Source: Synechococcus sp.
GTDB taxonomy: Bacteria > Cyanobacteriota > Cyanobacteriia > PCC-6307 > Cyanobiaceae
Assembly: GCA_047285805.1 (NCBI GenBank)
Contig: JBJBCN010000002.1
Coordinates: 1,248,001-1,312,000, forward strand
DNA: 64,000 nucleotides
Reading direction: 5' to 3'
Positions 16,027-36,693 of the stretch are shown piece by piece (position 1 is the stretch's first letter; every line of letters starts with the position of its first letter). The notes beneath the pieces were generated by a model. That model was given only the letters and a program-made list of their open reading frames with translations, made no database searches and had not been told where the DNA came from. Both the position numbers and the translations under genes were made by a program.

Positions 16027-16119
16027 AAGGATTCCTCCTATAAAGTGAATGAAAATATGTTTGTTCTCGGTGTTCTCTCACCGATAGGGTTTTGAGTCAG
16101 TTTATTGACTATCGATTAC

Positions 16120-16580: not shown

Positions 16581-17876
16581 TCAGACCTTCATGCCCTGAG
16601 CAAGCAAGGCATCACACCAAGCAACCATGAACAATCTTCGTTCTTTTAGGAAGTCATGTCGGTCATATATGCCCTGAATCCGGTCCTTCACCTTCCATCC
16701 TTGTTGGAGTCGAATGACCTTCTCATCGAATCCCAGTTCCTTCTGCCCATAGGTCAGAACACAAGTCCGAACTCCATGCCCCACGAAGTCCCCCTTGTAT
16801 CCGAGGTCGATGAAGTGGTTGTTGATGGATGACGGGTTGATGTGCCTGGACTGAGTGCGAGGAGAGGCAAAGACGAACTCGGTTCCTCCATTCACCTTCT
16901 CCATCTCCCAGAGCAGGTCCTTGATGGGTTGAGTCAGAGGCACCAGGTGGTTCTTCTCTCCGTCATCCCAGGTCTTCATACGGGTCGCAGGAACCTTCCA
17001 GAGTTCCTCTTCCATATCAACCTCCTCCCACTTCATCCCTGAAATCGCACCTACCCGCAGACCAGTCATGAAGGTCAGCAAGCAAGCACCACGGGTTGAG
17101 AACTGACCATTCGGTTCGTTGCGGTCGAACACCTCAAAGAACTCAGGGAGTTGTTCCCAGAAGGGGAACGGATGGTGCTGGACCTGATGGGTCTTCTTGT
17201 CCTTGGGACTGAACACCGAACGCATCAACGGGTTCTGTCCGTCCCTTATCCATCCCTTATTGACCGCATTCTCAAAGACCCCTTTCAGGACCATCTGCTG
17301 TTTGCTTGCTGAGGAGGGTGCCTTCTTCCTGACTCTCCCCAGGTATTCGGTCATTAGTTCCCGAGTGGTCTTCCCACCTGGGTGCCTGTATTCCCAGGAG
17401 AAGTGCTCCACGGGTGTCTTCGCACCGAACTCAGGCAGAACCTGATTCCAGAGGAGGTTCCTGTATTCCCTCTTCCCCCTCTCGTTTGCCGAGGTCCAGT
17501 CAGAGAGAAAGGACTCACATGCCTGTTCCAGGGTTGGAGAGGTCGTCTTCTGAACCAGGAGTGCCTGCTGCTCTCTCTTTCTCTCCCTGGGGTCTTTGCC
17601 GTTCTCTCTGCTCCATGTCCTGATTGCGGACCATTCCTCCTTTGCCTCTCTCAGAGACCACTTCCCAGTTCCCTTCCCATAAGGACCTATTCGGACCTCA
17701 ATCCACTTCCCTCCGTTGCTGGGACTACGGGGAGGGAACCGAGTGATGCCGATAAAGGACTTCCCACCCCCCTTGCTGATTGGTTCGACGACCACATACA
17801 ACGAATCACCGCAACTCTTCTTCTGTCGTTTAGTCCCAGGGGGTAGAGCACGGACTTGGGAGTCAGTAAGAGGCAT
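16581..17876 (-). CDS. Tyrosine recombinase, P4-like integrase with N-terminal arm-binding domain
   Basis: MPLTDSQVRAL N-terminus; TGLR, RMK, HGVR, QGW, IY catalytic positions; adjacent to tRNA. Confidence 0.93.
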   Translation of the reverse strand: MPLTDSQVRALPPGTKRQKKSCGDSLYVVVEPISKGGGKSFIGITRFPPRSPSNGGKWIEVRIGPYGKGTGKWSLREAKEEWSAIRTWSRENGKDPRERKREQQALLVQKTTSPTLEQACESFLSDWTSANERGKREYRNLLWNQVLPEFGAKTPVEHFSWEYRHPGGKTTRELMTEYLGRVRKKAPSSASKQQMVLKGVFENAVNKGWIRDGQNPLMRSVFSPKDKKTHQVQHHPFPFWEQLPEFFEVFDRNEPNGQFSTRGACLLTFMTGLRVGAISGMKWEEVDMEEELWKVPATRMKTWDDGEKNHLVPLTQPIKDLLWEMEKVNGGTEFVFASPRTQSRHINPSSINNHFIDLGYKGDFVGHGVRTCVLTYGQKELGFDEKVIRLQQGWKVKDRIQGIYDRHDFLKERRLFMVAWCDALLAQGMKV

Positions 17877-17884
17877 TTCAGGAT

Positions 17885-17946
17885 TCCCCCAACACGGATA
17901 TTTTCCCCCAACACACCCCCTTTATCCCCCAACATTTCCCCCAACA
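17885..17946. repeat. Four copies of TCCCCCAACA between integrase and att (putative arm-type sites)
   Basis: Exact copies at 17885, 17904, 17925 and 17937. Confidence 0.7.
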
Positions 17947-18061
17947 CTTTTTCGGAAAACCCTGGTGTCTCATGGGACGAACCAGGACCATGAACCACTA
18001 AGAAAGTCCCTCACCGCAACGGGTTTGGGACATTCAGAGACCTTTCAGGACTTTTTCAGAA

Positions 18062-18146
18062 CGGAGAGGGTGGGATTCGAACCCACGGAAGGTTGCCCTT
18101 CAAACGATTTCGAGTCGTTCGCTTTCGACCACTCAGCCACCTCTCC
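18062..18146 (-). tRNA. tRNA-Ser(CGA)
   Basis: GGAGAGGTGGCTGAGTGGTCGAAAGCG-AACGA-CT-CGA-AA-TCGTT, long variable arm, GGTTCGAATCC, CCTCTCCG. Confidence 0.97.
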
Positions 18147-18182
18147 AGGCGACCCGGCCAGTGTACGGATCAAGCCGCCAGC

Positions 18183-19505
18183 TCAGCTCTGGTGCCATCC
18201 GCTGGTGGAACCGGCAGTGGGCCACCAGACTTGGCACTCGCGCAAGACCCGGACCTCTCGGACGCTGGGAACAAACCCCAACCAGACCGCATCACCGCCA
18301 CAGCCACAGCCAACTCCACCAGACCTGCCGATCGGGCAGCACCCACCAACGCTGCCGCCCTGCCCGCAGCGATAGGCCTCGGCTATCGGGGCTAAGGCGA
18401 CGCACGGCCAGCCCCGGGCTCTGCAGCTGCTGCCTCGGCAAGAAGTGGTCGACCGTCGTGTGGGCCAGGCCCGCCCAGAAGGGGTTGGCCTCCTGCGGCA
18501 ACGGATCGAGCAACAACAGCCAATCGAAGCGGGGCACCCCCAGCCCCTGGGCCAATTGCGCGGCACGGCCTCAACTGCTCGCGTCCGCCTTCAGGCTTAC
18601 CAGAGCCGCCCGAACCTGGAGACGGAGGACCAGCCATTGGCGCGGAATCTGGCGCACCAACAGCAATTGATCCCGGCTCTGCTCCCAGCGGCGCAATCCC
18701 ACCGCCAGAGCCAGAAGCCGCCAGCCCCAGCAGCGGGGTAGCCAGCATTGCAGGCGCTCCTCCGGGGGCCGGCCGAGAGAATCAAGCCACCCGTGGCGGC
18801 CCGCTCAGCTGAAAGCCCACATCCAACAGCCAGCGGGGGCGCAGCAGCAGCAGGAGCACCTCCAGGGGAAGGGAGCGGCGGCCGCGCTCTTTAAGAACGA
18901 ACGCCAGGGCACTCATCAAGAGGGCGCAGACCATCGACGCCTGGGCGCCCGCTAAAAAGTCCAATCAGCCCCATCGCACCGAAGGCGGAAAGCCAGCGGA
19001 TGAGCGCTGGAGCGCGGCGACTCAGCAGCAGCACAACGCCCAGCAGCACGCTCAAGTGAAAGCCGCTAGCGGCCAGGGCATGGGAGAGGCTCGCCGCCCG
19101 AAAGACACCTCGAAGCGAGGCAGGCAACGGCACCATCGCCTGCCCCAAGACCAGCGCGGCCAGCAGTCCCACAGGTTCCTTCCCACCGGCCCTGCTACAG
19201 CTCCGAGCGGTCGCGGAAGCGCAGGTGCACCCGTCCCTGGGGCACATCGGCCAGGGCCTGATAAGCCGTGCCGATCGCTCGCGGATCGTGCAGCAGCCGG
19301 GCTTCCAGCTGAACGAGCTACGTCTGCTGGTGAGGGGGAATCCGGTGAACCGGATCAGCCGCTTGCCGGGTGGGGCTGGCTGGGACGGCCCCACCCGGCA
19401 AGCAGCAGCACGGCCAGCAGCCGGGGGAGGCGCCGTCGAGGGGGGGTAGGACTCTAGGAACAGGACCACTAAGGCCCCACCAAGAGCAGCAACGGAAAAC
19501 CTCAC
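18183..19505 (-). pseudogene. comEC: ComEC/Rec2 competence protein, frameshifted and internally deleted
   Basis: GLLAALVLG, LSHALAASGFHLS and LLDVGFQLS motifs lie in different reading frames; located between glyQ and tRNA-Ser. Confidence 0.8.
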
Positions 19506-19535
19506 CCAATCCGGCTGGAGTGAGCGTTCCCTTCG

Positions 19536-20423
19536 TTATGCCTCGACCGCCGCCTCTTTCTTGAGCAGCGGGAAGCCCAGGGCTTCGCGCTCCTCAAGCC
19601 AGGCCTCAGCGACTTGCCGGGCGAGGTACCGGATCCGGCCGATCGTCGCGGTGCGCTCCGTCACAGAAATCACCCCACGGGCCTCCAGCAGGTTGAAGGT
19701 GTGGCTGCACTTCAGGACAAAGTCCAGAGCCGGTGCGGGCAGCTTCTTCGCCACTAGGTCCGCGGCCTCTGACTCATAGATCGCGAACAGCTGCTTGAGG
19801 CGCTCCGGGTTGGAGGCCTCGAAGTTGTAGGTGCACTGACCCTTCTCAAACGGCAACCAGATGTCGCCGTAGGAGCGGTTACCGTCCCAGGAGAGATCCC
19901 AGATACTCTCGACGTCCTGGAGGTACATCGCCAGACGCTCCAGGCCATAGGTGATCTCGATCGAGACCGGCCTGCAATCGATGCCGCCGCACTGCTGGAA
20001 GTAGGTGAACTGGGTCACCTCCATGCCATCGAGCCAGACTTCCCAGCCCACACCCCAGGCGCCGAGGGTCGGGGACTCCCAGTTGTCCTCGACGAAGCGA
20101 ATGTCGTGGTCCTTAGCGCGAATGCCCAGGGCTTCCAGCGAAGCCAGATAGGTCTCTTGAATCGCATCCGGACTGGGCTTGACCAGCACCTGGTACTGGA
20201 AATAGTGCTGAGCCCGGTTCGGGTTATCGCCATAGCGGCCATCGGTGGGCCGGCGGCAAGGCTCCGGGTAGGCCACCGCCCAGGGCTCCGGCCCGATGGC
20301 CCGCAGCACCGTATGGGGGCTCATCGTCCCGGCACCCTTCTCCGTGTCGTAGGGCTGAAGGATCAGACAACCCCGCTCAGCCCAAAAGCGGTTTAGGGTC
20401 TGGATGATGTCCTGGAAATGCAC
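19536..20423 (-). CDS. glyQ: Glycine--tRNA ligase alpha subunit
   Basis: GTG start, [41 protein letters not shown]. Confidence 0.97.
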
Positions 20424-21256
20424 TGTTGTTGCCGGACCTGGGTTTACTGGGGTCTCGAAAGCTAGAGCAGGTTGGAATGGGTAGTTCACAAGTCGTGACC
20501 CAACTCGCTCAAAGGACTTTCAACCCAACCGAGTTGGGTAGAGGTTGGGTCGATTCTCGCTAATCGCCGACCAACCCAACTATCTGGGAGGAAGGCGGAG
20601 ACACAAAGGCAGACCCCCGTGCAGCCAAGCGAAGGCAAAACGCGGACATCAAGCGCTCCCGAAAGGGTCCTGAAGGCACGCTGGGCGCTTCACCTCAAGC
20701 AGTCCAGAAGAGCGCCCATGGGGGTTTGTCGCCCATGCACATAGCTAATACTGCTTCAGAAACTGGGGCCGGAAACCCTCTGAAGCTGAGGCTTTTCCAA
20801 TTCACAGCAATGGTCGAGAGTCAGCAAAGATTTCGTAGGTCGGTCGAATAGAGCGACTGACCTTCTCTGAGGGCTCTTGAGTTATTTCAAGACTCAGCTT
20901 AGTCGTTGCAAGCTCAACCTCTATAGCCAATTGCCCCAACCGAGCACACAGGAGTTTTTGAGTTCGTGATGATATGTTTGACATGGATATCGTGCAATTG
21001 GCGTAAAGCCATAAATATGGTTTGACGATTGCGCAAAGACTTTACCTATCCAAACATAAGCATATGGTTAGGTGAAGCATTTGCTTGGCTCAGCCTGATT
21101 GGCGGGGGGTTGTGTGGTCCTCTTCTGGGTATGGGCCTCCAGATAAAATAAATCCAACGTGCCAGAGCTAGCAAATCCCATACGTGTATGGAACAAGGCG
21201 AGCAGACGCCACAGCTCAACTCTGTCAAGATTGGAGAGGAAATGCTTCTTGGCTCA

Positions 21257-21646
21257 ATGGCAGCTTTCGACGACAGCACCCCCTTTATGCTCCTGGCCCG
21301 CATCCAAGTGAAGGAGGGACGTGTTGATGAGTACTTGGAGTTGGCACGCGTCACCGATGCCGCAGTTCAAGCGAGCGAACCCGGAATGCTGCACCACACA
21401 TTCGATCAAGATCCAGATGATCCCAAGGGATTCGTCTGGTCAGAGGTCTATGCGAACGATGCAGCCTTTGCCGCTCATGTCTCAAACCCTCCCGTTCAGG
21501 AGTATCTGCAGAAGCATGCAGAACTTGGCGATGGCTTCAGCGTTGAGGTCTATGGAACTGTCGGCGACGAGTGCAAGGCTCTGATGGAGTCATTCGGACT
21601 ACCGCTACGAATCTTCCGAACGAAGCTGGGTTACAGCAGGGTCTGA
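21257..21646 (+). CDS. Antibiotic biosynthesis monooxygenase (ABM) family protein
   Basis: ARIQVKEG, EPGMLHHTF, FVWSEVYANDAAFAAH. Confidence 0.8.
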   Translation: MAAFDDSTPFMLLARIQVKEGRVDEYLELARVTDAAVQASEPGMLHHTFDQDPDDPKGFVWSEVYANDAAFAAHVSNPPVQEYLQKHAELGDGFSVEVYGTVGDECKALMESFGLPLRIFRTKLGYSRV

Positions 21647-21879
21647 TTGAACTGCAAACAGCACCTGGATACTGTGAACTGAGCAAAGCCATAAACATTG
21701 AGGACACGCTCGAGCTTTGCTCGCCATGATCCGAGAGGGAGGAGGTCATTCCGCTCATCCTCCTCAACTCTCCCCGCTACTGAGCAGTGGGGCAGTGGGC
21801 TGTATATCGGCAAAAACGAAGCGTGTAAATCGCTGGTTCGCCATGCGCAATTGTCACCACATTGCCTCGTCAATGTCTT

Positions 21880-22134
21880 CTACTGAGGCAAAGATGTCTT
21901 TGGCTCTCTGTAGCTGCCATTGCAGTGGACGACGATTTCATCAAGCAGGTATTTGGAGTTCTCCTAGATATGAGACTTGAAGCAATGGTTGAAGTACTTA
22001 GCCTCTTCTTCAACAGCGTGCATTCTTTGATTGATCTAGATAACGTTCACCATTCCAATCGCAATATAGATGGTACCAGCCGTTGCCAGCACAGGGTAGA
22101 GGTGGGCGTTGATGAGATCACGTGCGTTGTTCAT
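21880..22134 (-). pseudogene. Small picocyanobacterial hypothetical protein with two in-frame TAG stops
   Basis: MNNARDLINAHLYPVLATAGTIYIAIGMVNVI*INQR..AKYFNHCFKSHI*ENS..VVHCNGS. Confidence 0.5.
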
Positions 22135-22606
22135 AGTTTTTTTTGTAGGCGTAATCTTTTTCTAGCCAGCTTCGGGGGATCGACCCATCTCCGTCTGTCG
22201 GGTATGACGATCAGAGGTGGATCAGCAGAAAACTGCAATAACGGGCTTACCGGCCCCCGCTTGATGGATCGCAAGCCGTAAACAGGTGTTTCTACTGATG
22301 CCAGTTCCTGATGGCCCAACTATTACGGGGTCCGACACCTAGAAGGCCTGCCTTCATTCTGACGGGTTAGGTGCCGAGGGGGCGGTGGGGACACCGCCCT
22401 TCTCGGTGCCAGCTTTCCTGGCGAAGATGGGGAGCAAATGGAATGCAATCCATGCAGTACCAATTCGCTAATCCAAGTTAGCGCCACAAATCCGATGCGC
22501 TCTGTCGTTTCTCGGCCTCAGGGAATGCCAGGCTTCAAGAAGCCACCCGTGAATTGACAGTTGCTGCAGACATGAGTGGCATTCAGGAGAAAGCTGCCTT
22601 TTCGAA

Positions 22607-22894
22607 ATGAATACATGCATCCCACTTCCAGTAATCACTACCATCATCGCCTGCATCTTTGCCATACACCTGCTTGCGAATGAGCACATGAACCCAATCC
22701 CGCGGAAACTAAAGAAAGCATTATCATGGTCATTAATTGCATTTGTCCTATTAGTAAATACTGGCACTTTTGCTGGATTTTATGTCAGCAAGCTGATTGG
22801 CTGGTGGGAGGATGATTGGCAGACAGTTGCCTTATCTATAATTGCGGGCATAGGTTCATGGTATTTCCTTTTTCTAGCATTTGGACTGCTATAG
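22607..22894 (+). CDS. Hypothetical membrane protein
   Basis: 95 aa with three hydrophobic segments. Confidence 0.55.
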   Translation: MNTCIPLPVITTIIACIFAIHLLANEHMNPIPRKLKKALSWSLIAFVLLVNTGTFAGFYVSKLIGWWEDDWQTVALSIIAGIGSWYFLFLAFGLL

Positions 22895-23338
22895 TCAATG
22901 GCAGGTAAGTCAGGACAGGTTTAAGCAGTATCCAGCTACCTGAGGATCATGTAAGCAGCGCTTCACCCCGCTCTTATCAAGTGACTGAGAAATCACCAGC
23001 GCACGACTTACTTCAGATAGGCGACATCGAACCTGTGGCTAACGGCCGCCCTTCTCAATGGGTTGGGTTGCTTCCACCCAACACTGGTTTCGAATCTCGT
23101 AGACCAGCACAGAGCCGACGCAGTCGCTGTGAGCGCAAACGTCTGTGGCTAGTCATCCCATGGAGGTTTTTCTTGGCTGGTCGCTGGTGGGTCATTTACG
23201 GCTCGCTGCTTTGAGAACCTCAGGCCGAGTGCTAAGTCCCACACACAACGCCAAAGGGGTAACCAAAGACACGTCACCGCTTAAGCCCTGACTCCACTAT
23301 TGACAGGAGACCTTCGAATGGGTTTCAAGGGAGAACCT

Positions 23339-23366
23339 GAGGCGGGGTGGAACCCGCCTCTTTTTT
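23339..23366 (+). terminator. Intrinsic terminator
   Basis: GAGGCGGG-GTGGAA-CCCGCCTC followed by T6. Confidence 0.7.
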
Positions 23367-23709
23367 ATGTCTCCCTGGCCACTGATGGTTTGCTTCAGCA
23401 GACGCTGCTGCCAATCCTGCACCAGCTAGTCCAGGCGGGTGAGCACAGCTGGGTTCAATGGAAGCCGCACAGTAACCGGCCAATGCCTAGCTGATGCCGC
23501 CAAACGGATACCCTCTATGAGACAACTGGAGTCCTTGTGAGTACGCGAAGCGGCTACGGAGATTTGGACAGGAGCCTCGCTAGAGCCAAGCGAGACAAAT
23601 GAAGCAGCCTGGTAGTGGATGCAATCGTTATGTGTTCTCAACCCGGGGAAGCAAAGTCCTGTGGTTGCCTTGTTGTGGGTAGATAGCGGAAGTATCAACC
23701 ACAAGCGCA

Positions 23710-24423
23710 TCAGGCAAAACCTCTTCCCACAGCGTTAATCTTCTCTTTTGCATCTAAGAATTCAACTTTATCTGTGGCGGGATCGTAGATTGTGAATTTA
23801 CAGCCGCTGCCAATTCCGATAATCGTTCGTTTTGGCACGCTGTGATCAGATTCATGCTTAGCAGCATGATCAACAACCTGAGAGTGCACTACCCCTCCAG
23901 AAAGTTCAATAGTGAACTGCTTGTGACTCCGCGCTGTAAATAGACGATTGACATCCAAGCGCGTAAGCCGGTCCAGAAGAATCAGAGGTGATGTCTTCTC
24001 AGTAAGCTGATCGCCAACATCGGCGGAGCTTCCATGGATCAAGGCGCAGTCTAGTTCTATAAATCCAAACTGAAGATTTGCCAACCATGAAACATGACTC
24101 TGATCAACAGAGGAAACAAGTCTATGCACAAGATCTTTACCTTTCTGTTGCCTCAGCAGGTCTGCCTTGCGATCACCTCGGTAACCAAGCTCTGCCAAAA
24201 GCTGATCCTCCCACCAGCCATAGATGCAATCAGGTGCGATGTCATTATGTTTTGGGTTTCGAATTCGTTCAAGCAATGCATTGCAGTTTGAACTTGCTCC
24301 GACTAAGTCTCCTAGAATAAAAAGATTAGCAACTCCCCTTTTGTGCTTAAGGTGACGTTGGATCTGCTCATAAGTTTCAAGGTCACCATTAAGACCGCTA
24401 ACGAGTGCCCAGCGCTCCATCAT
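23710..24423 (-). CDS. Metallophosphoesterase-like protein with degenerate metal ligands
   Basis: LGDLVG and IHGS retained, but the DxH motif reads SGLNG; paralog of the upstream gene. Confidence 0.8.
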   Translation of the reverse strand: MMERWALVSGLNGDLETYEQIQRHLKHKRGVANLFILGDLVGASSNCNALLERIRNPKHNDIAPDCIYGWWEDQLLAELGYRGDRKADLLRQQKGKDLVHRLVSSVDQSHVSWLANLQFGFIELDCALIHGSSADVGDQLTEKTSPLILLDRLTRLDVNRLFTARSHKQFTIELSGGVVHSQVVDHAAKHESDHSVPKRTIIGIGSGCKFTIYDPATDKVEFLDAKEKINAVGRGFA

Positions 24424-25235
24424 CGCTCACACACATGAGAAGCATCGTCGGCACGCTCGGCATACTCAAAGCCATGGCCAAGTCTCCATGCAAATATAGC
24501 GGGCAGGCCGGCTTCTATAATTGCCTTACAAGTCTTCTGGACGTCGTAACCAACCTCTCGAATTGTCACTGATCCAGTTTCTTCATTGTGGATCACGTAC
24601 GTGGCCTTTGTATTGCCATGTCGAGGCTCTCCAACAGAGCCGGCGTTCACTATTCGACGTAGGGGTATCTCCATCTCAGCTGTTAGCGACTCATTGTGCT
24701 CAGGCATCTGGACTTTAACTTGAATACTTCCACCACTTAACTCGCGCACATAGGGTTGATGGGTATGACCACAGAATAGAGTTTCAGCGCAAGCAGTCTC
24801 GACACGTTCAAGCGCTGCAAAAGCACTCATATCAGGCAGAAGATATTCATGCTGACTGTTTGGACTACCATGTACAAAAAGAAGCTTATTGCGACGGAAA
24901 GACATTGGCAAAGCCGCAAGATAGCTCTTGTTATCGTCGGTTAAGACTGCATCTGTCCAACGATGTGCACGATGACCTCGCCTCTCTGCCAGCTGAGATG
25001 GGTAACTGCAGTCACAAGCATTGAGGCCGTCAATAATGTCCTCATCCCAACAACCCTGGCAGGATGGTATTTTTCTCTGTCGAAGTAACTCAATCACTTC
25101 ATTGGGCTGAGGGCCATACCCAACGAGATCCCCGAGGCATGTAATTCTATTAATACCCTGGGAGTCAATGTCCTTGAGAACTGCCTCGAATGCAGCAAGG
25201 TTTGCATGTAGACAGGAAATGACAGCGTGATTCAT
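24420..25235 (-). CDS. Metallophosphoesterase family protein
   Basis: SCLHAN, CLGDLVGYGP, VHGSP, CGHTH, NAGSVG.PR. Confidence 0.9.
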   Translation of the reverse strand: MNHAVISCLHANLAAFEAVLKDIDSQGINRITCLGDLVGYGPQPNEVIELLRQRKIPSCQGCWDEDIIDGLNACDCSYPSQLAERRGHRAHRWTDAVLTDDNKSYLAALPMSFRRNKLLFVHGSPNSQHEYLLPDMSAFAALERVETACAETLFCGHTHQPYVRELSGGSIQVKVQMPEHNESLTAEMEIPLRRIVNAGSVGEPRHGNTKATYVIHNEETGSVTIREVGYDVQKTCKAIIEAGLPAIFAWRLGHGFEYAERADDASHVCER

Positions 25236-25248
25236 TGGATTCAGAATA

Positions 25249-26016
25249 CTATGAATGAGATTGTTGCCGTGTCCGCAGTTGTTGCTGTTGTACTTCTAGA
25301 GCATCGTCAGAGATAAGGCAGTCGTTAATCGTTGACTTGATACCTTCTTGATTGAGGTCTCTACCCTGAACCACAAGTTCAGATACGCAACTTGGCCTAC
25401 CATTTGGTGCAGATAACTGATTGAGTGGAAGGAATTGAGAGCCTTGCTGGCTTACCATCCAGTTGAAGTAAAAGGATCTACCGTCGGGCAGATTCATTAA
25501 TGCCTTAGCTCGGTAGACATCACCATATGCACCATTAACTAATTCAAACCAAAAGGCATTGAGACTGTCAGGATCCCAGACTTCACCGCCAAGGTCAAGG
25601 TTCAAGGATTCTAAGACACTGAATTCGAGCGTATCATTCGTTGGTAGTTCCAGGTCTCGTCCGAAATGAAGATAGGCGGTTGGCTTAACATATAGTTTAT
25701 TCAACTGATCCCTTACACCTTCACTAAATGCATCAATGCCTGTTTTCTCGGGTGGACGGAATTCTTGCAGCTCAATTATCAGAAGCTGATTATCCTCTTC
25801 CCTACACGTAAGCAATGAGGATTGAAGGTTGGGCACTTGATCTTGCAGCCAGGCTTGGTCGATCCCAGAGTCATTGCCTTGTTCAAGTTTGAGGCAGCTT
25901 TCTCCAGCAAGGCGCATATAAGCCCTGGAACCTTGGTGTTCCTGGAGAGCCTTCAGTGCCCATGCGGTTTTTCCGCAACCAGGAGGCCCTGAAAGCAATG
26001 TGACCTTAGCCCCCAA
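25249..26016 (-). CDS. CobW/COG0523-like protein (Walker A plus CobW_C-like C-terminus)
   Basis: SGPPGCGKT; VYRAKA..ELVVQGRDL; no CxCC motif seen. Confidence 0.7.
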   Translation of the reverse strand: MGAKVTLLSGPPGCGKTAWALKALQEHQGSRAYMRLAGESCLKLEQGNDSGIDQAWLQDQVPNLQSSLLTCREEDNQLLIIELQEFRPPEKTGIDAFSEGVRDQLNKLYVKPTAYLHFGRDLELPTNDTLEFSVLESLNLDLGGEVWDPDSLNAFWFELVNGAYGDVYRAKALMNLPDGRSFYFNWMVSQQGSQFLPLNQLSAPNGRPSCVSELVVQGRDLNQEGIKSTINDCLISDDALEVQQQQLRTRQQSHS

Positions 26017-26024
26017 AATCCTTC

Positions 26025-26047
26025 ACAGGAATGGTAATCGTTCCTAT
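26025..26047. promoter_or_regulatory. Zur/Fur-type inverted repeat
   Basis: ACAGGAATGGTAATCGTTCCTAT; core matches AATGATnATCATT with 2 mismatches; adjacent to a minus-strand CATAAT -10-like hexamer. Confidence 0.55.
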
Positions 26048-26159
26048 TATGGCCTAGAGTGATGATGAGCGTCTAGGGCGCAACCGCTGAGTGGCTATGA
26101 ATTTGAACAGTCCATAACGCCAACTCTCGCTAACGTTTAGGCGGTAGGGGTTTTTCGTT

Positions 26160-26429
26160 ATGCCAACTCTGGAAGAATTTACATACATTCTACTAGACCT
26201 TGCTCTAGTGGTTTTCTTGTCTCAGAAGGGATATGAGTTCTTTAGTGCTTACTACAAGCGAAAGCGTTTAGTAAATAATCATCCAGAGATGAAAGGAGTC
26301 GACCCAGACGAGGAAAGTATGTTCGTATTCGAGAGTGACGAAATACTGAAAGACTTCGTCCTCAGCAATGACGAGCCAGGTGCTGATGAGCCATTCTATG
26401 TCTCAGAGGAAGATATTGACAGCCAGTGA
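26160..26429 (+). CDS. Hypothetical protein, possibly DUF2973-like
   Basis: N-terminal TM helix, HPEM motif, acidic tail. Confidence 0.55.
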   Translation: MPTLEEFTYILLDLALVVFLSQKGYEFFSAYYKRKRLVNNHPEMKGVDPDEESMFVFESDEILKDFVLSNDEPGADEPFYVSEEDIDSQ

Positions 26430-26656
26430 CCCTCAACAATTCATACAAGAACATGGAAGAGTGGACTGAAGAATTTGTGCAGAATGCACAAACGGAGCTG
26501 ATATCAATGGTCGAAGACTGGAAATATGAATTTGGGGCTGATGACATCGAATGCTCAGCTATGCTTCTATGGATGGTATTACGTCTAGGGGCGAATCTAA
26601 AGTCATCCCAGGAAGTCATCTCAATACTTTGCAGTGAGAAGTTGTCTTCAAGTTGA
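26426..26656 (+). CDS. Hypothetical protein
   Basis: 76-aa ORF overlapping the previous stop (GTGA). Confidence 0.5.
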   Translation: MTLNNSYKNMEEWTEEFVQNAQTELISMVEDWKYEFGADDIECSAMLLWMVLRLGANLKSSQEVISILCSEKLSSS

Positions 26657-26736
26657 AATTCATCTTGCTAGAGGGTATAAGCATGCGCGCAAGGCAATAA
26701 CTAAAGATTAAATCTTTAGGTGGGACTTTCGGCTGA

Positions 26737-28110
<1,374 letters not shown>

Positions 28111-28118
28111 GCAGCCAG

Positions 28119-29012
28119 TTGTCACTTATTCTTCCAAGAGAGTACAACAAGATTAACTCTCTTCAACGAGCTGGTGTCCTTTGGATAGATCCATTCCTTG
28201 CACAGAAGCAAGACATTAGACCGCTTCGGATTGGAATAATTAATATTATGCCCCTTGGGATGCAGTATGAATACAACCTGCTGCACCCACTTGGATTATC
28301 ACCTCTCCAGATTGAGCCCATATGGATTCGCCTGTCTAGCCATGACTACAAGACATGGGATCGAGACCATTTGGACCGTACATATATTTCTTGGGAAGAA
28401 GCGAATTCTAACGACTTCGTAGATGGGCTAGTTATTACTGGTGCGCCAGTCGAGCATCTGGAATTTGAAAAAGTCAAATATTGGGAAGAGCTAGTGATGA
28501 TCATTCATGAAGCTCGTGCCCATTGCGCTAGCACACTTGGTCTTTGCTGGGCTGGTTTTGCATTGGCTTATCTAGCTGGAGTTAATAAGAGACCGTTATC
28601 ACAAAAGCTTTTCGGGGTGTTTCCTCTCAAGTCACTAGCTCCAGATAATCCAGTGATTAGCAGCCAAGATGACATCTTTGTTTGCCCACAAAGCCGGCAT
28701 GCATCACTAGATGATCAGCAGATGGAAAAAGCAGCGCTTCAAGGAAAGTTGAGGCTTCTAGCTCATGGAAAGGGTGTTGGCTACACCATCTTTGAAACAT
28801 CCGACCAAAAGCAGCTTATGCATCTCGGTCATCCAGAATATAATGCAGATAGGATTCTTGCGGAAATGGCGAGGGATCGTGGCCGAGGTGATGTTCCACC
28901 TCCGTTCAACTTTGATGAACACGAGCCTATTACAATCTGGAGATCGCACCGAAACTTGTTTTTTCAGCAATGGCTCTGGCTCTGCTATCAGAGGCTTAGC
29001 TTTAAGAGTTAG
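28119..29012 (+). CDS. metA: Homoserine O-acyltransferase, MetA family (probably acetyltransferase)
   Basis: QDIRPLRIGIINIMP, ITGAPVE, LCWAG (catalytic Cys), PQSRH, GHPEY. Confidence 0.93.
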   Translation: MSLILPREYNKINSLQRAGVLWIDPFLAQKQDIRPLRIGIINIMPLGMQYEYNLLHPLGLSPLQIEPIWIRLSSHDYKTWDRDHLDRTYISWEEANSNDFVDGLVITGAPVEHLEFEKVKYWEELVMIIHEARAHCASTLGLCWAGFALAYLAGVNKRPLSQKLFGVFPLKSLAPDNPVISSQDDIFVCPQSRHASLDDQQMEKAALQGKLRLLAHGKGVGYTIFETSDQKQLMHLGHPEYNADRILAEMARDRGRGDVPPPFNFDEHEPITIWRSHRNLFFQQWLWLCYQRLSFKS

Positions 29013-29568
29013 ATTAATGATATGAATTCATTGGTGGGATGGATCACTTTGACATCTCTTAATCAGAGCACGACAGCTTTCTTCGTCGGGCTCGGTTTCT
29101 CTCTCCCTCTAGGTTATTAAATTCGGAATCTGGGGCAGAACGGCACAGCGGTTCACCCCATGCAGCGCAGTCATTCTCGGGTTCTGCTGAATCCGATTGA
29201 CTTACAACTGAGCGCCATCTCAATGGGCTGTAGAAGCTCTTAAACGGGCCGTTGGTTTACCGTAGAGGTTCACGCAGAAGTGGGGCGTGGGGGCTTCTGG
29301 AGCCCTTGGGGGTACGAAATAGGAGTGCGGAAATTTGGGGCAGTGAACTGAGGGCGAGTGCCACTCCCCCCCCGGTGTTCCTTTCTTTAAGACCCTCAAA
29401 AGCCAAGGCTTCTCATACCAGGTCTTGGGCTACCCATCCCGGACGCCGGGAGTCCCCCGCTTGCAGATGGAGCCAATCGAGTAGAGCGCGGTTCAATTCG
29501 AGTCACTGCGACAAACAGCCCGATGAACACGATCAACACGATGAACCGGATCGCCCTGCCAGTCGCCG

Positions 29569-29784
29569 TCATTGCCCCAATCCTGAAGTCCTGTCATCAC
29601 ACTCTCCGGTTCGAAGCAGCAACAACTGCAATTCACGCTCTTGGATCGCCTGATAGGCGCGGCGCAGCCCATTTACTTCGACGCAGACTCGTTCCGGATC
29701 GCAAACGCGAAACCAGTCGTCGCCAGCGATCTCAACCGTAAAACCAGTCTCTGTCTCGAAAACTGGAGGTAGGTCTTTCTCCAT
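29569..29784 (-). CDS. Small hypothetical protein
   Basis: MEKDLPPVFETETGFTVEIAGDDWFRVCDPERVCVEV; protein-like part of the 113-aa track ORF. Confidence 0.45.
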   Translation of the reverse strand: MEKDLPPVFETETGFTVEIAGDDWFRVCDPERVCVEVNGLRRAYQAIQERELQLLLLRTGECDDRTSGLGQ

Positions 29785-30163
29785 CCAATTCAGCAAGCTC
29801 ACTCTGTTGGTAGCTGCCAAGGCAATGGGATTGGTGGGGCTTAAGGATCCCCTCGCCTCATGCTGCCGATACGCGCCTAAGTGGCCTGGGAAAGAGTGAA
29901 GATCGCGCATCCAGCGATGCTTGGCTGGTCCTTACCTCCAGGGTTCCTCTAGTGGATGCGCCACCCCCTTGCACTGCTGGCAGCACCAAGGTCATAACAG
30001 CTGAGGAAACGGCTCCCCGCAGACCCCGTAATCAGAGACAGGGGTTCCACCTACCGCGTAGCCCTCACCTCAACACTCCCCACAGCGAGCTGTGGTCAGG
30101 GGAGCTGTTGATGCTTTTTGGTTGCCGCGTGGCTAATGCAGGAGCATCCCATCTTCCCCACTC

Positions 30164-30340
30164 ATGAAAGCTCTATTACCCCTTCTTCTTCTTACGGGGC
30201 TTATTGCAGCCTGTAGCAGCAATGGACTCACGCCAGAGCGAAAAGCCTGCCTCGAGAAAGCAACCTCAGAAGCTGAGCGGATCGAGTGCAACAAGCAGTC
30301 AGCCATTGATGCTGACAAGGAAGCGGAAGCGTCGAAATAG
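30164..30340 (+). CDS. Small lipoprotein, 58 aa (not in ORF track)
   Basis: MKALLPLLLLTGLIAAC lipobox signal followed by SSNGLTPERKACLEKATSEAERIECNKQ. Confidence 0.65.
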   Translation: MKALLPLLLLTGLIAACSSNGLTPERKACLEKATSEAERIECNKQSAIDADKEAEASK

Positions 30341-31078
30341 TCCTGGCACTCCCCGCTACTGAGCAGTGGGTCGGGGAGCTCTTGTTAAGAGAGCCACGCT
30401 TGCTGTTCTCAGCATTCAATCCGGAGCTTTGTGCACTTTTTGCAGCGGCAGATGTAGTCATCGCCCTTGCTGCCAATCGCCTCCTGGCTTTCTCAAACCC
30501 ACTTCCGTATGAATAGTCAGTGGCATCCAGTTCGCAAGTTCGTCGGCACTCGGTGGTGTGTTGGTGCCATCAGTCATGCCCGAAGAATGCACTCAGGCTG
30601 AGAAGTGCACCATCGGTTACCAAGCCGCCGCGATGTAACCGCTTTTCAGCCACGATCACACTCACTTCCTGCGGAAGTAGCTGCAACTCAGAAGCCGAAA
30701 GGCATATGTGCAGCTGATGATTGGATTAGAGCCGCTGCTGGCATGCACACCTCAACAGGTGCTTGAAGCGCTCCTGCGGCGGTCCGCAGGCCCACACCAG
30801 AAGTTCAGTCGGTGACAAAAAGAACATCACTTCTGAAGCTGCTGCCGGATCATTTGCTCACGACCGCCGGGTCGGACAAGGGAGATAGAAGAGGCGGGCT
30901 GGCACCCGCATTTTCATGTCAGATTGACCGCTGCTTGGTTACATCAGCAGATGCTCCTGCCATTCCTGCTCCAGCTGGTCTTGGTAGGTAGCTCCAGCTA
31001 GCGCCATCGAGGATTTCTCTGTGCGCCAAGGCTGCCACTGGAAGCTGACAAGCAAGTTAGAAATTATGCTTTCTGTTC

Positions 31079-31261
31079 TCACCACTGAGCGTTGACAGGT
31101 TGCCATCCCAGCTGCATAAGAGAATTCCATAATTTGTGGGCATCTTCTGTTGTCATCATCGTGTGCTCTTCTACTAAGGGCAAATCCCAGCCCCGAAGAC
31201 TCGATTTTGCGACCAGGACACCGTCAGGGCCTTGAGAGCTTGCTGTCGTGAATCTGGCCAC
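31079..31261 (-). CDS. DUF1651-like protein (5' end uncertain, possibly decayed)
   Basis: C-terminal A..LW..L...GW....QW pattern typical of this picocyanobacterial family. Confidence 0.5.
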   Translation of the reverse strand: MARFTTASSQGPDGVLVAKSSLRGWDLPLVEEHTMMTTEDAHKLWNSLMQLGWQPVNAQW

Positions 31262-31342
31262 TGCCTGCCCACATGGGCTCTTGAGCCAACTCCTTTTCTG
31301 ACGAGAATCATTAGAAGATAAGAATGAGATGAGATGATCCTC

Positions 31343-32053
31343 TTACTTCTTTGCCGACCATGCATTAAGGACTTCTGGGAAATGATCTTGCATACACTTC
31401 TCGCATATTCCATGGCTAAAGTTTAAAGTAGAATGCCTTCCAAGGTATTGATCCAGGTACTCCCATCCTCCATCCAAGTCTTTAACTTTTCTGCAATATG
31501 CGCACGTCGTAATAATTTCCCCAGCACCCTTATGCTTACAAAAGCTCTCGATGAGCTTGACCGATCTTTTTCTAAGTTCGAGGAAAGCAACGACCTGCCT
31601 GGCAAGCGCTTTCATAATGAAAAGTTGATTCTCGCTGAGAACTCTTGGAACTGTATCAATGATACAAAGCGTCCCTATTCTTATGGAGTCATCAGTGCTC
31701 AATGGAAATCCTGCATAGAGCCTTATCCCTGGCTCACCACAGACCAGCGGGTTATCAGTAAATCGACGATCCTTTACGGCATCCTCGACGATCAACGGCT
31801 CTGAATCTTCTATGGCATGGGCGCAGAAAGACCAATCTCGCGGTGTTTCCTCTACGTCAGTGCCAACCTTGGACTTAAACCACTGTCGCCCAGAGTCGAC
31901 CAGGCTGATCAATGCTATAGGGGCTTCACATACTCTTGCTGCAATTTCGGTTATATCATCATAAGTTTGCTCTGGCTTAGTGCCCAGAATCCTATACTCT
32001 GTTAAAGCTTTGAGCCTCTCAGCCTCATTGCTCAGATGCGGCGGGTTGATCAA
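31343..32053 (-). CDS. GAF domain protein with C-terminal Cys cluster
   Basis: NEAERLKAL..Y.IL, RQWFKS, SFCAHAI, D.RF.DNPLV, GTLCIID; CAYC..SHGICEKC. Confidence 0.85.
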   Translation of the reverse strand: MINPPHLSNEAERLKALTEYRILGTKPEQTYDDITEIAARVCEAPIALISLVDSGRQWFKSKVGTDVEETPRDWSFCAHAIEDSEPLIVEDAVKDRRFTDNPLVCGEPGIRLYAGFPLSTDDSIRIGTLCIIDTVPRVLSENQLFIMKALARQVVAFLELRKRSVKLIESFCKHKGAGEIITTCAYCRKVKDLDGGWEYLDQYLGRHSTLNFSHGICEKCMQDHFPEVLNAWSAKK

Positions 32054-33384
32054 AGCAAACTCCTATCCAAGGTTTAACCTACATCAACAATGGCGAATAT
32101 CAACTCTTCAACATAAAGCTTAATTCAGCCTGCCTAAACTTGCGCGGGCTCATCGACGAAATAAGACTTTGACTAGTGCGCCTTTAGATACGCTCTTCTC
32201 TCGCCTTAAATTGATGATTAACTATTCCTGACCCTCACGGGTGGCTGCTTTGCCTATCTGTTGGAGTTGGTGATCGCTGAATTGTGAGAGTAGTGATTGT
32301 GATTGGTTGTTCATTTGCTTGAGTCAGTTTTTGTCGATTGTTGGTTTGTCTGACTCGAGTTCAAGCTGAATTGATGCTGTTGGAGCTGGTGAAGCTAGTT
32401 GGTCTTCGAGCCATCCAACGTGGCTTCCTCCGTTCTTGCTGATGAGTGCGAGGCGTTGGCTTCTACCTGTGGCTTTATTGTTCATTTTTGTGTGATTGAC
32501 TTTTTCTTTATCAGGTTCAGACTGGCTTTAACCGCTCAAGTGAAGTGCCTCCAATTGCTCTTCTGATCTCTACTTTTGTGTTTTGTGTGATTTACGGATC
32601 TGCTTACGGAGCAGCTCTTAACAGTAAGAATGAGAAGGTGGTCTTCCTGAACAAGGACTCTATGCTCGTTGCTATTGGCTTCTCTGCGCTTCTATTCCTT
32701 CTGAATAAGCCATTCGACTAAGCACTTATTACCGGTTAATGCCAGCTATCTCTGCCAAAAGGGCAGTGGGTATTTCACCTAGATTCGCTTGGGAAGTATT
32801 CCCGTAGGCTCCGCCTACAACACACTCCTGAAACACGAACCTAGACCCATACATAATTGGAAGAGGTTTCACAGGAGTTTTTGCTGCCGCCACTATGTCA
32901 TCGTGTCGAGATAAAGGGGTTGGAAACGGCTACTACTGACGAGTGCCTACAGCCCGTCTCTCCCAGGCGTCCAAGGAACGAACAACGACCTACTCCAACC
33001 AAGCTTTTGGTTGGCATTCAGAGTTGCACCTTTCTTTAACGACGTTCCCAATGGTCCGCTTTTATTGCCTTTTGCTGGCTTTGACTACTTTTGCAGTTGA
33101 AGGGGTTGTTTCCTCATCTATAGGGAAAGGATCAAGACCTAGTCTTTGTTCGCGTCTCTCGCCTATATAGATAAGGGATCACCAGATGCACCCAGAAGGA
33201 CCTGAAAGGCGGCTCTGGGTAGCCTGCAGGGCAGATTAAGTATATTCTGGCCCCCTTGCAGGCAATCGTGGCCGGCACAGAGATTTCATGACTGCTCTAT
33301 CGAGGCAAGTCAAAATTACTCTAAAGGGCAGATCTAGTTTATTTGCCGAATGACTTACTATCCTTAACTTACTTCACCCTTATA

Positions 33385-34842
33385 TTAAGTCCATCCGAGG
33401 GGTGATTGTGAACCAACCTTTTCCAGGTCTACCAGCTTTTCGTCAGATATTTTCCGCGCATAGCTCCTTGCTGTCGCTTCTGAACAGCGCTTCTTGACAG
33501 CACTCCGGCCATAGTGAGGAATCAAGATCTCAAGGCTGTGACCTGTGAGCTGCTTGACCAAGTAAATGTCCTTACCTTCCTCAATCTTATTAGTGATGCA
33601 GGAGGAGCGAAGGGAATAAGTTGTGTAGTCTTTATCTCCTCTTGTTGGAGTGAGTTTGACTCCGAGCTCTTGCCGCATTTGTTTCCAGGTCTCATGGAAC
33701 TGGGTATAGGTGTATGGCTTCTCCGTGTAAGGGTTGAAAAAGACATGGTCCTTCTGGATCAAAGCACGGAGTGAGTGCTTACGTCTGAACTCATCACAGA
33801 ACTGCCGCCAACAGATGAAGAAGTTTGCTGTGTTGCAGGGGACGTCTCGTGGCACTCCTGTTTTGGTGTGACGGATGTGGAGTGTTGCCTCAGGAAATTC
33901 AACAGTCTTACTGGACTCGCTTAAGTGATCCGCCATCTCAACCTTCACGTCGTCCCAGCGCAGACCAGCAAGCAGCACCTCTTTGATGGTGATCGACGCA
34001 TCAGTCTCGTACTTACGACGCTTCTCGATCTTTCCCAGCAACTCTGTCGGCCGAGTACCCGCGTTGTACGAGATCAGCACGAAGTGTCTGAACAGCTACC
34101 GCCAGTAGCCAACACGAGGGTTCCCAAACGCCTCGCCTGCCTTCGCCCAGCGCTCCAAGTACTGGTAGATCAAACGCCAATCAGGCTCCAGCGGGATTGG
34201 CGGGTTGGCATCGAGCTGGTCCTGACGAGTGACGAGCTTGGGGATCGTGGGAAGGATTTCCGTGTAACAACGAGGAATCAAGAAGTTCTGAAATCAGTCC
34301 TTCACATGGACCAGATCTTGCTTGACCGTCGATTCCTTAGGCGGCTTGCGCTCCGCCGTAGCGGAGATCAACTTCCAACCCTTAGTCAGTCTCCAGTTGG
34401 CGTAGTCAAGGAACGTGTCTCTATTGATCTCCCCGATGCTTGTGAGGCGCTTGTAGTTCAAGTGGTAGATCCGAACAGCACCAAGCAGATGGGAAGTAGT
34501 TCCCCTAACCGCGCTCTCACTGAGCTGACCAGTGGCCTGTCTCTCCTCTTTGACCTTGACCCAGGCCTTCAACAGATCGCTGATCGCATAAGTAGCCAAC
34601 GCATTCTGACCGCTCGCGTCCATCTCCTGCTGCAACGCCAGGAACAGGTGCTCTGCCTCCCGTAAAGCTACTTGCTGAGTCTTGGAGTTGAGCTGACGAC
34701 TGATGTAGCGCTTAGTGCCTTTGATCAGCTGCCTGTAAACCCAGACGCCAAGCTTCAGGTCGTACTGAACAATCTGCGCTCGACCAACCAGTATTTGATG
34801 CCTGAGCTGGTTTCCGTCAGCATCAAGACGCAAGCCACGCAT
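33385..34842 (-). pseudogene. Tyrosine recombinase/integrase with two in-frame nonsense codons
   Basis: Three track ORFs in the same frame separated by TGA (34294-34296) and TAG (34096-34098); GTRP, TKTG, YSLR, TGHS, HY catalytic motifs. Confidence 0.85.
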
Positions 34843-34981
34843 GACCCGGAGAAGCGGGGTTCAGGCCTAGGCCAGTTGGAATGAGTTGGGTGCCCCCCTA
34901 AGAACGCACTACTTGACTTACCACTTATGTCCTGGAATTACACGGATGCTCTGAACAAGGTTCGGCGTGCGGGGATTCTCG

Positions 34982-35956
34982 CTAACCGCCCGCCAGGCGA
35001 ACCTCGTGCACCCGCCGCTCTGCGTCCACCCGCAGCACGACATCAGCGGAGCGCCCGGCCACCAAGGCCGATTCCGGGATACAGACCTGAAGACTGCGCG
35101 TCATGGTGTCGAGCTCGTGCTCAGCCAGTCCAAACCCTGACTGTTGCTGCTGGCTCTGGTTCTGTTGACGCTTCCAGGCCATCACCGTGGAGAGGGTGGT
35201 CGGGCTCAGCTGCCAGAGACCGTCCAGGAGCCGCCAGACCTCCTGATAGGGGGCAAGGTTCCGTTCGATGACGGGCCGATAAGCCAATTCCGAAGGAGAA
35301 AGGGGAGTTAGGTCAGCGCTCAACTCCCCGTGACGGGACGCAGGCCAGGACCCGGCTCCGACAAACCAGCCCTCCAGGATCAACCGATCAGTGTTGAGCA
35401 GCCGAGTGCCCGCCCGATCGCCACGGCCCTGCCGCAGAGCCTTGTCAAACACGGGGACCTCGCAGGTCCCTTCATTTCGCCATTGCTGCAGAGCCCGGAG
35501 CAACAGCTCGACGTCGTGACTTCCCGGAATGCCCCGGGGCGCCTGCCACGGGTTGCCGGCCATCGCCGACTCCAGCTGCTCCCCTGGAAAATAGAAGTCG
35601 TCCAAAGAGAGAACCTCAACGACCATCCCCAAGCGGGCCGCGGCTGCCTTGATCCAGGCACAGAGGGTGGATTTGCCGCAGCCCGGCATCGCCGCCAAAC
35701 CCAGGAGAGAGCAAGGCGGGGACTGCTGGACTTGGTCCAGCAGGGGCAAGCCCACCGAGGCAATCCAGCGGGGATCCACCCCAACGGGCCAAGCCTCGCG
35801 GGCCAAGGACAGTCCATCGATGGCTGTCCAACGCGCCAGCCAATCAACCAGGGAGTCGTAGCCCAAGGCGGCGACCAGGGCCTCAAAACCACCGATCTCC
35901 CGGCAGCGATTCAGCTGCTCTGAGGCGGTCAGATCAAAGTCATGGTTGGCCGGCAT
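34982..35956 (-). CDS. P-loop kinase (D-glycerate 3-kinase / phosphoribulokinase-uridine kinase family)
   Basis: MPGCGKST, LSLDDFY, RGIPGSHD, PVFDKAL..GRGDR, ILEGW. Confidence 0.85.
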   Translation of the reverse strand: MPANHDFDLTASEQLNRCREIGGFEALVAALGYDSLVDWLARWTAIDGLSLAREAWPVGVDPRWIASVGLPLLDQVQQSPPCSLLGLAAMPGCGKSTLCAWIKAAAARLGMVVEVLSLDDFYFPGEQLESAMAGNPWQAPRGIPGSHDVELLLRALQQWRNEGTCEVPVFDKALRQGRGDRAGTRLLNTDRLILEGWFVGAGSWPASRHGELSADLTPLSPSELAYRPVIERNLAPYQEVWRLLDGLWQLSPTTLSTVMAWKRQQNQSQQQQSGFGLAEHELDTMTRSLQVCIPESALVAGRSADVVLRVDAERRVHEVRLAGG

Positions 35957-35958
35957 TG

Positions 35959-36693
35959 TTAGGCGATCAACTTCAGCAGCCCCATCTGCCCGCCCGCCAG
36001 AAGCTGATGATGAGCCTGGCTGAAGCCAGCATCCCGAGCCAACTGCTCTTGCTGGGGGCCGGTCGGGAAACGCGCGAGGCTGTCCTCCAGGTAGGCGTAC
36101 TGGGCCTCGAGGCCCGCCCGCTTGGCAAGGGGCACTACCAACTGACGCAGGTAGAAGCGTTGGAACTGAGCCGTCATCCCCTGGGGGTTGAGGGCTCGGT
36201 TGAAATCGAGAACTGCCGCCCGCCCGCCGGTACAGAGCAACCGCCGCAGTTCCCGCAGCCCTGCCGCGGGTTCCGCCAGGTTGCGCAGGCCGTAGGCCAT
36301 CACTGCACCATCGGCCCAGCCATTCGCCAGCTTCGTGGCCTGGGCATCGGCCTGGCGAAACTCGAGCGGCAACCAGGGGCAACGGGCGGCCCGCCGCCGG
36401 GCCTGCACAAGCGGCGCTGCCGCCGCATCCAATCCCAGGACGAGGCCAGCCGGCCGCACCTTCTCCGCCAGCAACAACGCCAAATCGCCGGTGCCGCAGC
36501 AGAGGTCCAGCAGCCTCAGCCCGGGGGCCGGTTGCAGCCAGGCCACCGCCTGACGCTTCCAGAGGCGATGCAAGCCCAGGCTGAGCAGGTCGTTCAGCCG
36601 GTCGTATTCGGGAGCAATCCGGTCGAACAGCTCACGGACCGCTTCGGGATTCCCGGGTGGAATCGCAGTGGAGGACTCAGGGCTCGGCGGCAT
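35959..36693 (-). CDS. menG: Demethylphylloquinol methyltransferase MenG/UbiE
   Basis: FDRIAPEYDRLNDLLSLGLHRLWK, LDLCCGTGD, YGLRN. Confidence 0.92.
   Translation of the reverse strand: MPPSPESSTAIPPGNPEAVRELFDRIAPEYDRLNDLLSLGLHRLWKRQAVAWLQPAPGLRLLDLCCGTGDLALLLAEKVRPAGLVLGLDAAAAPLVQARRRAARCPWLPLEFRQADAQATKLANGWADGAVMAYGLRNLAEPAAGLRELRRLLCTGGRAAVLDFNRALNPQGMTAQFQRFYLRQLVVPLAKRAGLEAQYAYLEDSLARFPTGPQQEQLARDAGFSQAHHQLLAGGQMGLLKLIA

Follow-up and report, generated by a model that had tools for sequence, protein, structure and literature searches.

The DNA analysed here (the window) is a stretch of 64 000 nucleotides from Synechococcus sp. (assembly GCA_047285805.1, contig JBJBCN010000002.1, positions 1,248,001 to 1,312,000 of the forward strand). 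It contains a 14.5 kb island lying in the first codons of glyQ, the gene for the α subunit of glycine–tRNA ligase (19536..20423, minus strand; PF02091, TIGR00388 above the cut-off). In all likelihood the island supplies codons 1–3 of glyQ, having probably been inserted by its own integrase within the heptamer CAGGACA; a stop codon at the displaced host start is likely to be later decay, and precise excision would probably be lethal.

Insertion of the island into glyQ

The genome holding the window is complete (2.37 Mb, ∼61% GC) and contains one copy of glyQ; a dimeric glycyl-tRNA synthetase (GlyRS) was looked for in the genome and none was found. On the minus strand glyQ begins, from the element-supplied GTG, with GTG CAT TTC CAG GAC AT (20423-20407), and this 17-mer recurs on the same strand as GTG TAA TTC CAG GAC AT (34943-34927), identical at 15 of 17 positions. 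In a genome-wide search (2.37 Mb) the second copy was the only match with two or fewer mismatches, and seven scattered matches appeared at three. The GC content of the 14.5 kb between the copies is 49%, compared with 65–66% in the flanks. The two 17-mers are the attR and attL sites of an island inserted in the first codons of glyQ. The preliminary description of this DNA had reported the repeated glyQ start, and both copies were recovered; the shared 11 bp core that it proposed also exists, but the functional shared core is 7 bp.

The attR core (20399..20423, minus strand) consists of an element-side 9 bp arm that forms codons 1–3 (20423-20415), the overlap CAGGACA (20414-20408) and a host-side arm (20407-20399). 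The attL core (34919..34943, minus strand) consists of the host start GTG TAA TTC (34943-34935, with TAA at 34940-34938), a second copy of the overlap (34934-34928) and a damaged element-side arm. Contigs of three runs, which may be the genome's own source and hence do not count as independent support, span both junctions; they showed no differences from the window over 19000-21918 and 0–1 differences over 30351-36000, the one listed (35243) lying outside the island. Because the contigs cross the junctions without differences there, the TAA and the stops in the integrase gene described below are not assembly errors. No joint between the two cores that skips the island was found in the contigs of four runs, which drop rare variants and are therefore uninformative on excision.

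A search of the genus returned 30 glyQ loci (29 relatives plus the window). In three relatives (G023, G033 and G036) the same kinase gene stands directly upstream of glyQ, with 41, 41 and 50 nt, respectively, between its last codon and glyQ, which starts GTG CAT or GTG CAC. These empty sites identify the spacer at 34944-34981 of the window as the orphaned native upstream region of glyQ and host codon 2 as originally a sense codon; kinase, the same spacer and a GTG CAY glyQ thus occur in relatives in the order that the preliminary description had anticipated. The orphaned spacer (34944..34985, minus strand) follows the stop codon of the nucleoside-kinase-like gene, carries a −10-like GAGAAT (34980-34975) and now faces into the integrase gene. 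Precisely joined empty sites were also found for two other elements (G219 for the element at locus L041, G381 for that of G446).

The glyQ gene of G219 (locus L217) has ATT at the usual start position and that of G268 (L218) has ATC; each is preceded, within a few codons, by an ATG in frame (six codons upstream of the ATT in G219). The element at L041 exchanges this longer N-terminus for a GTG start. The ATT in the attL of L041 was considered as a decayed start and rejected, since the empty site of G219 has the same ATT.

Mapping of the crossover

The crossover was mapped by comparing sets of empty site (attB), attL, attR and element junction, and on these sequence comparisons the crossover interval is the 7 bp CAGGACA, nt 10–16 of glyQ. 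In the G311 set attL keeps the host's GTG CAT TTT, and attR reads TTG TAC TTC, letters as in junction L045, which has the same P arm; host letters stand in attL at nt 1, 4, 6 and 9, and element letters occupy these positions in attR. The sets from G335 and G127 agree with this. At L041, attL has the host's ATT CAT, identical to the empty site of G219, and attR has the GTG of the element; the attL of G446 retains host letters at nt 6 and 9. On the other side of the interval, nt 17 already differs between attL and attR in G127, G335, G446 and G273. Across 21 element (P-to-P′) junctions, which may be circles or tandem arrays, inverted symmetry peaks at a centre on nt 13 (0.56 and 0.51 versus a median of 0.28; 77 settings).

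All 21 junctions keep the pattern DTG-HAY-TTY with variation at wobble positions only, a coding signature in line with a need for the element to contribute functional codons; codons 1–3 would then double as the left core arm, with a putative role in binding. Given a crossover in nt 10–16, the element supplies codons 1–3 of glyQ, and the element-specific TTG TAC TTC or GTG CAC in attR versus host codons in attL indicates that a new 5′ coding end is provided. Two earlier proposals, that the 5′ end of glyQ serves as the att site and that the island supplies the glyQ start, are therefore upheld, the former by the empty sites and by the glyQ motif at loci of integrase homologs, the latter by the element-specific codons in attR.

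Proposed promoter hand-over

The P arm of the element (20424..20580, minus strand) is now the predicted 5′ leader of glyQ. It contains CCAAC/GTTGG repeats (20470-20476, 20499-20504, 20524-20529, 20532-20538, 20543-20549 and 20575-20580, minus strand), and similar arrays are present in the arms of homologous elements; by analogy with lambda-type integrases they are likely to be integrase arm sites. Within the arm lies a promoter-like box (20552..20568, minus strand) that is a 16/17 copy of the host's own glyQ box, with a −10-like GAGAAT 135 nt before the GTG. The 12-mer core of this box occurs exactly twice in the genome, in the P arm and at 34974-34985. Scored with a motif defined from these same sequences, a −10-like hexamer was found in 24 of 27 empty sites, 27–58 nt before glyQ (mean of shuffled sequences, 0.5), and in 14 of 24 P arms, 124–142 nt before it (mean of shuffled sequences, 4.9; maximum, 11). 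A scan with the standard sigma-70 consensus gave no promoter in the P arm. The P arm probably supplies a replacement glyQ promoter, and the earlier proposal that the island also provides the upstream signals of glyQ is probable.

The integrase and its family

The integrase gene at the attL end (33385..34842, minus strand; PF00589, phrog_1) is a pseudogene of a glyQ-targeting tyrosine integrase family, and its start lies 101 nt from nt 1 of attL. In-frame stops are present at codons 183 and 249 (34296-34294 and 34098-34096); the homolog P0002, which is 84% identical, has W and Q at these positions. Nine further changes affect conserved residues. Its pN/pS is 0.30, compared with 0.09 and 0.10 in two sister genes, and an estimated ∼3% of neutral drift has accumulated since it died. 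These features agree with its initial identification as a pseudogene.

A protein search returned 44 homologs (43–84% identity), some of them intact, and profile scans gave 46 homolog loci, 16 of which had too little upstream DNA; the remaining 30 (at least 125 nt upstream) were scored with a motif consensus drawn from the same sites. The glyQ-start motif stands directly before the integrase gene in 29 of the 30 (control, 1 of 2268 windows), L052 having a diverged version, and the best match lies 96–122 nt before the gene across all 30; the glyQ adjacency of integrase homologs raised in the preliminary description is thereby borne out. No tRNA gene was found beside the integrase in the 46 loci, the single tRNA detected (L041) lying beyond glyQ. 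A second integrase group with 34–38% identity (G335, G315, G072 and G475) and a distant integrase in G446 occupy the same glyQ site. In a draw of 401 genomes of the family, 13 matched at E 1e-40; seven of these, including the window, are at glyQ-type sites, and the six most distant matches lie elsewhere, at least four of them at the ends of other protein-coding genes. On a quick tree with long branches the glyQ-target label clusters (three changes, one change also being allowed, versus a shuffled mean of 10.2), which does not prove a single origin; the integrase of a tRNA-Ser island in the window is a distant long branch in this tree. No related integrase was found in viral_contigs or in 50,697 phage records, which gives no support for a prophage origin.

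No paper describing a glyQ att site was found among the open-access papers searched, although TIGER/Islander and the supplements or journal version of the tycheposon study could list it, and glyQ is not mentioned in one supplement of PMC12884075. The glyQ-start integrase family of picocyanobacteria and its hotspot are thus apparently undescribed. In one marine genus the site is occupied, or an element arm precedes glyQ, in 10 of 25 genomes (11 with one inverted locus). In Prochlorococcus/Synechococcus-type cyanobacteria, where the formation of islands has been linked to elements that target tRNA genes, this adds a non-tRNA hotspot served by an integrase family of its own, with a mapped 7 bp crossover. 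Together, the intact integrase homologs and the conserved attB also offer a testable landing pad for engineering picocyanobacteria.

Three further observations were made on related elements. A sister integrase clade (L032, L033, L088, L091, L090 and L093) is located at the ends of other protein-coding genes, which we take from sequence likeness to be lnt (L032), rsmE (L088 and L091), the 3′ end of ychF (L090) and the 3′ end of an iscA/hesB-like gene (L093); this points to further hotspots outside tRNA genes. A single-subunit phage-type RNA polymerase gene lies near the integrase in intact glyQ elements (L094:15438-17876 and L052:12-1523; phrog_414), similar open reading frames (ORFs) were recognized by their starts in L036, L058, L064 and L072, and no capsid genes were noticed; the carriers are possibly satellite-like elements. 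The attL sites of L098:8625 (G315) and L099:11278 (G072) extend as a longer mimic of the GlyQ N-terminus with a stop after ∼14 codons, unlike those of the main family.

Decay of attL and the predicted consequence of excision

With the crossover mapped 3′ of codon 3, precise excision is predicted to leave glyQ as GTG TAA TTC, with a stop at codon 2, as had been proposed at the outset. Clean excision would be likely to kill the cell; glyQS is essential in E. coli (PMC10123097).

The P′ arm inside attL (34843..34927, minus strand) carries arm-type repeats at 34884-34890 and 34874-34880 and, in alignment with L037 and L038, lacks 5 bp just to the right of the core. The core-to-arm spacing is accordingly 37 in the window versus 41–42 elsewhere, a shift of about half a helical turn; in 25 of the 27 other sites a script placed the first arm motif at +41/+42, and it gave none in L132 and +28 in L038, for which alignment gives 42. 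Just inside attL 13 of 76 shared sites are changed (17% divergence). Among 20 attL sites, lesions were found in seven of 11 without an intact integrase and in none of nine with one, the integrase of G446 being counted as likely intact. Besides the TAA of the window, which is the only stop at codon 2 among the 20 sites, the seven comprise a frameshift (+1) in G413, a codon 4 stop in G385, the substitutions F3L (G276) and H2Y (L037) and, in G327 and G357, changes within the overlap. Most likely the TAA is a scar peculiar to this grounded element and a by-product of decay, and many other single lesions would lock the site equally; the stop codon is a neat detail, but probably accidental.

The proposed course of events is as follows. 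Integration would strand the host promoter and codons 1–3 at the integrase end (attL), where the codons would no longer encode anything, and the P arm would place before the rest of glyQ a predicted −10 promoter and a valid start of its own, followed by two codons compatible with the gene; with start, codons and promoter so provided, glyQ would survive the insertion. Death of the integrase would then have been followed by decay of attL, comprising the loss of 5 bp next to the core, alterations of the arm and the replacement of CAT by TAA. Excision would now be doubly blocked, by lack of enzyme and by a damaged site, and lethal if it occurred. The part so trapped would be the short P arm now driving glyQ and not the cargo. 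An essential gene can in this way end up being expressed from mobile-element DNA.

Several observations weigh against this account. One of the six sets, that of G273, fits a crossover to the left of codon 2 better, in a comparison that used a reference host and a junction from other strains and in a genus with variation at these wobble positions. An attP belonging to this exact element was not found, and the P arm of the window gave no blastn hit in the fetched loci. The promoter argument suffers from the derivation of the hexamer from the sequences in which it was counted and from the negative sigma-70 scan. The split of lesions by integrase state has a Fisher p of 0.005, which overstates the case because the sites are related. 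Finally, CAT to TAA takes two changes, one of a rare type, which makes this exact lesion improbable in advance: its chance is ∼3e-4 at the private rates of the integrase and, by our estimate, perhaps tenfold that at the 17% divergence observed just inside attL.

A broader form of the proposal is tentative and in our judgement rather doubtful: integration at the glyQ 5′ end would act across picocyanobacteria as a one-way ratchet, in which the stranded start decays, excision becomes lethal and element DNA permanently owns the promoter and start. On that reading the element of this lineage appears to have copied the host promoter box into its arm, and host-lethal attL lesions recur often, so that there may be selection for them.

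Selection is the whole of a narrower alternative, in which the TAA was selected as a lock: through an addiction coupled to recombination, cells that lose the island would die. Two specific changes do give a stop exactly at codon 2, lesions that look lethal to the host occur in the attL of other grounded copies (the frameshift of G413, the codon 4 stop of G385) and the island carries the only metY and metA of the genome. We nevertheless consider such a lock improbable. Being on the host side of the crossover, the TAA would not be part of an excised circle and does not move with the element; no killing determinant carried by the element and kept among active copies was found, the TAA being absent from the 19 other attL sites, which include all nine with an intact integrase, and none of those nine elements has any attL lesion. 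A dead integrase and a half-turn deletion in attL leave no excision to punish, an allele lethal on excision would bring its carrier no gain, and an empty allele brought in by homologous recombination would likewise release the lock. The metA gene was found in only two of 45 genomes of the genus (two of 21 near-complete ones) and is thus not core; for the same reason the idea that metY and metA make the island indispensable was dropped.

Slightly less credible again is that the TAA arrived with attP through a crossover to the left of codon 2, in which case excision would restore GTG CAT and there would be no lock. TAY is common at codon 2 of the junctions (T at nt 4 in 9/21) and is one step from TAA, the first attL of L037 has GTG TAT versus GTG CAT in the nearest empty host, and the G273 set is ambiguous. 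In five sets, in contrast, attL follows the host and attR departs from it as far as nt 6 or 9, the 21 junctions without exception keep a valid start and sense codons, and the closest intact relative, L038, has the CAC of its own host at attL. Least likely of all is that the geometry is right yet excision is survivable through translation restarting downstream: ATC, a weak alternative start, occurs in frame at codons 6 and 7 after the stop, and G268 and G219 have ATC and ATT at the codon 1 position, but the first in-frame ATG and GTG are codons 34 and 39, the match to the Pfam glyQ model begins at residue 3 and the alignments to solved GlyQ chains at residues 1–3, G219 has its in-frame ATG upstream and there is no second GlyRS that we could find.

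Comparison with known elements

The tyrosine recombinase gene by the att site, the precise empty sites, the short overlap, the inverted arms and the spaced repeats place the glyQ island among lambda-type site-specific integrative elements. Integration at a 5′ end with replacement of the gene start is already known (dusA, prfC and rbgA); the interest here lies in the apparently undescribed integrase family and its non-tRNA glyQ hotspot. The 5′-end target in a tRNA synthetase gene had been called unusual; the precedents, one of them in the essential rbgA, take away from this, and the glyQ target itself was not found in print. The SXT element reportedly supplies a new 5′ end and promoter to prfC.

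With dusA-associated islands, as described in PMC4482086, the glyQ elements share a tyrosine-integrase family, a single target at the 5′ end of a tRNA-related gene that encodes a protein, a replacement 5′ end with a putative promoter and diverse cargo with the integrase as the sole common gene. They differ in targeting glyQ rather than dusA, dusB or dusC, in having cyanobacterial rather than proteobacterial hosts and in replacing only codons 1–3; the two families are set apart here by target and description. The same paper reports dusA to be dispensable in deletion libraries (Farrugia et al., 2015).

Tn5253 of Streptococcus likewise integrates into an essential gene with a role in translation, rbgA, close to its start (after nt 20); the element restores the coding sequence, attL being identical to attB and attR to the site of the element (Santoro et al., 2021). 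Unlike the glyQ elements, with their 7 bp overlap and 9 bp arms, Tn5253 is conjugative and makes a 17–84 bp duplication (PMC8571831); no conjugation genes were seen in the ORF lists of the glyQ elements, at which no profile search for such genes was aimed. The SXT/R391 integrative and conjugative elements (ICEs) share integration in the 5′ end of a translation gene, prfC, and tandem arrays, comparable to the junctions and to the two-element locus L037, but are large ICEs of gammaproteobacteria (PMC5812530).

Tycheposons and cryptic elements of Prochlorococcus have, according to Hackl et al. (bioRxiv 10.1101/2020.12.28.424599), the same hosts, an inward-facing tyrosine integrase at one end, nutrient-type cargo and island building by serial integration with degenerate remnants. 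Their targets are seven tRNA/tmRNA genes, unlike that of the glyQ elements, at which no tRNA target with a partial tRNA repeat was found. The words 'glyQ', 'glycyl' and 'synthetase' are absent from the main text of that preprint, the Fig. 3 legend of which mentions non-tRNA-associated integrases without a target in that passage; the glyQ family may be among these. In the available parts of a marine satellite paper (PMC9618062) and a cyanophage preprint (10.1101/325100) the glyQ site is unmentioned.

Cargo and its erosion

The cargo (21188..32053) is a mosaic, pieces of which are repeated elsewhere in the genome. It comprises genes for an ABM-family protein (21188-21646, plus strand), a calcineurin-like phosphoesterase (24420-25235, minus strand) with an unassigned neighbour (23710-24423, minus strand), a CobW_C-like protein (25249-26016, minus strand), metY (26746-28110, plus strand), metA (28119-29012, plus strand), the last two in single genome copy, and a GAF protein (31343-32053, minus strand). 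In G023 metA sits near tRNA-Ala.

Spans from attL to attR in the different genomes are 0.3, 0.9, 1.1, 1.7, 2.3, 3.9, 5.6, 6.2, 8.9, 9.3, 10.8, 14.5 and 39.7 kb. The cargo has been eroded to 0.3–2.3 kb in G273, G226, G327, G357, G385 and G311, and in G161 and G350 no attL was found and an element-type arm still leads into glyQ. The earlier claim that the dead integrase and lethal excision fix the cargo is not supported, as relatives have lost nearly all cargo and yet keep the glyQ-proximal arm; the protected part is only the ∼150 bp arm feeding glyQ.

A segment at 29093-29908 is 96.8% identical to G000:C2:783631-784449 and is a recent exchange between islands within the genome. A hairpin-forming repeat of ∼35 nt (30347-30384 and 21770-21791) has ∼15 copies in the genome, in clusters and usually after a second hairpin; it had no Rfam match here.

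Neighbouring features

A second, independent low-GC island (7610-18147) is integrated on tRNA-Ser(cga) (18061-18147), the only match in an Rfam scan of 7000-36000. Its integrase gene (16581-17876) is intact (PF00589 and an arm-binding domain), a 12 bp copy of the tRNA 3′ end lies at 7610-7621, and G033 is without this island. The two islands thus flank a block of glyQ, comEC and the tRNA gene. The comEC-like gene downstream of glyQ (18392-19505) is in pieces in the window and in G023, and in G022 it is a long open frame. At L207 (G392:C1:1484500-1501000) glyQ is inverted with respect to its usual upstream neighbour and element-like DNA lies upstream, a possible rearrangement at the glyQ hotspot.

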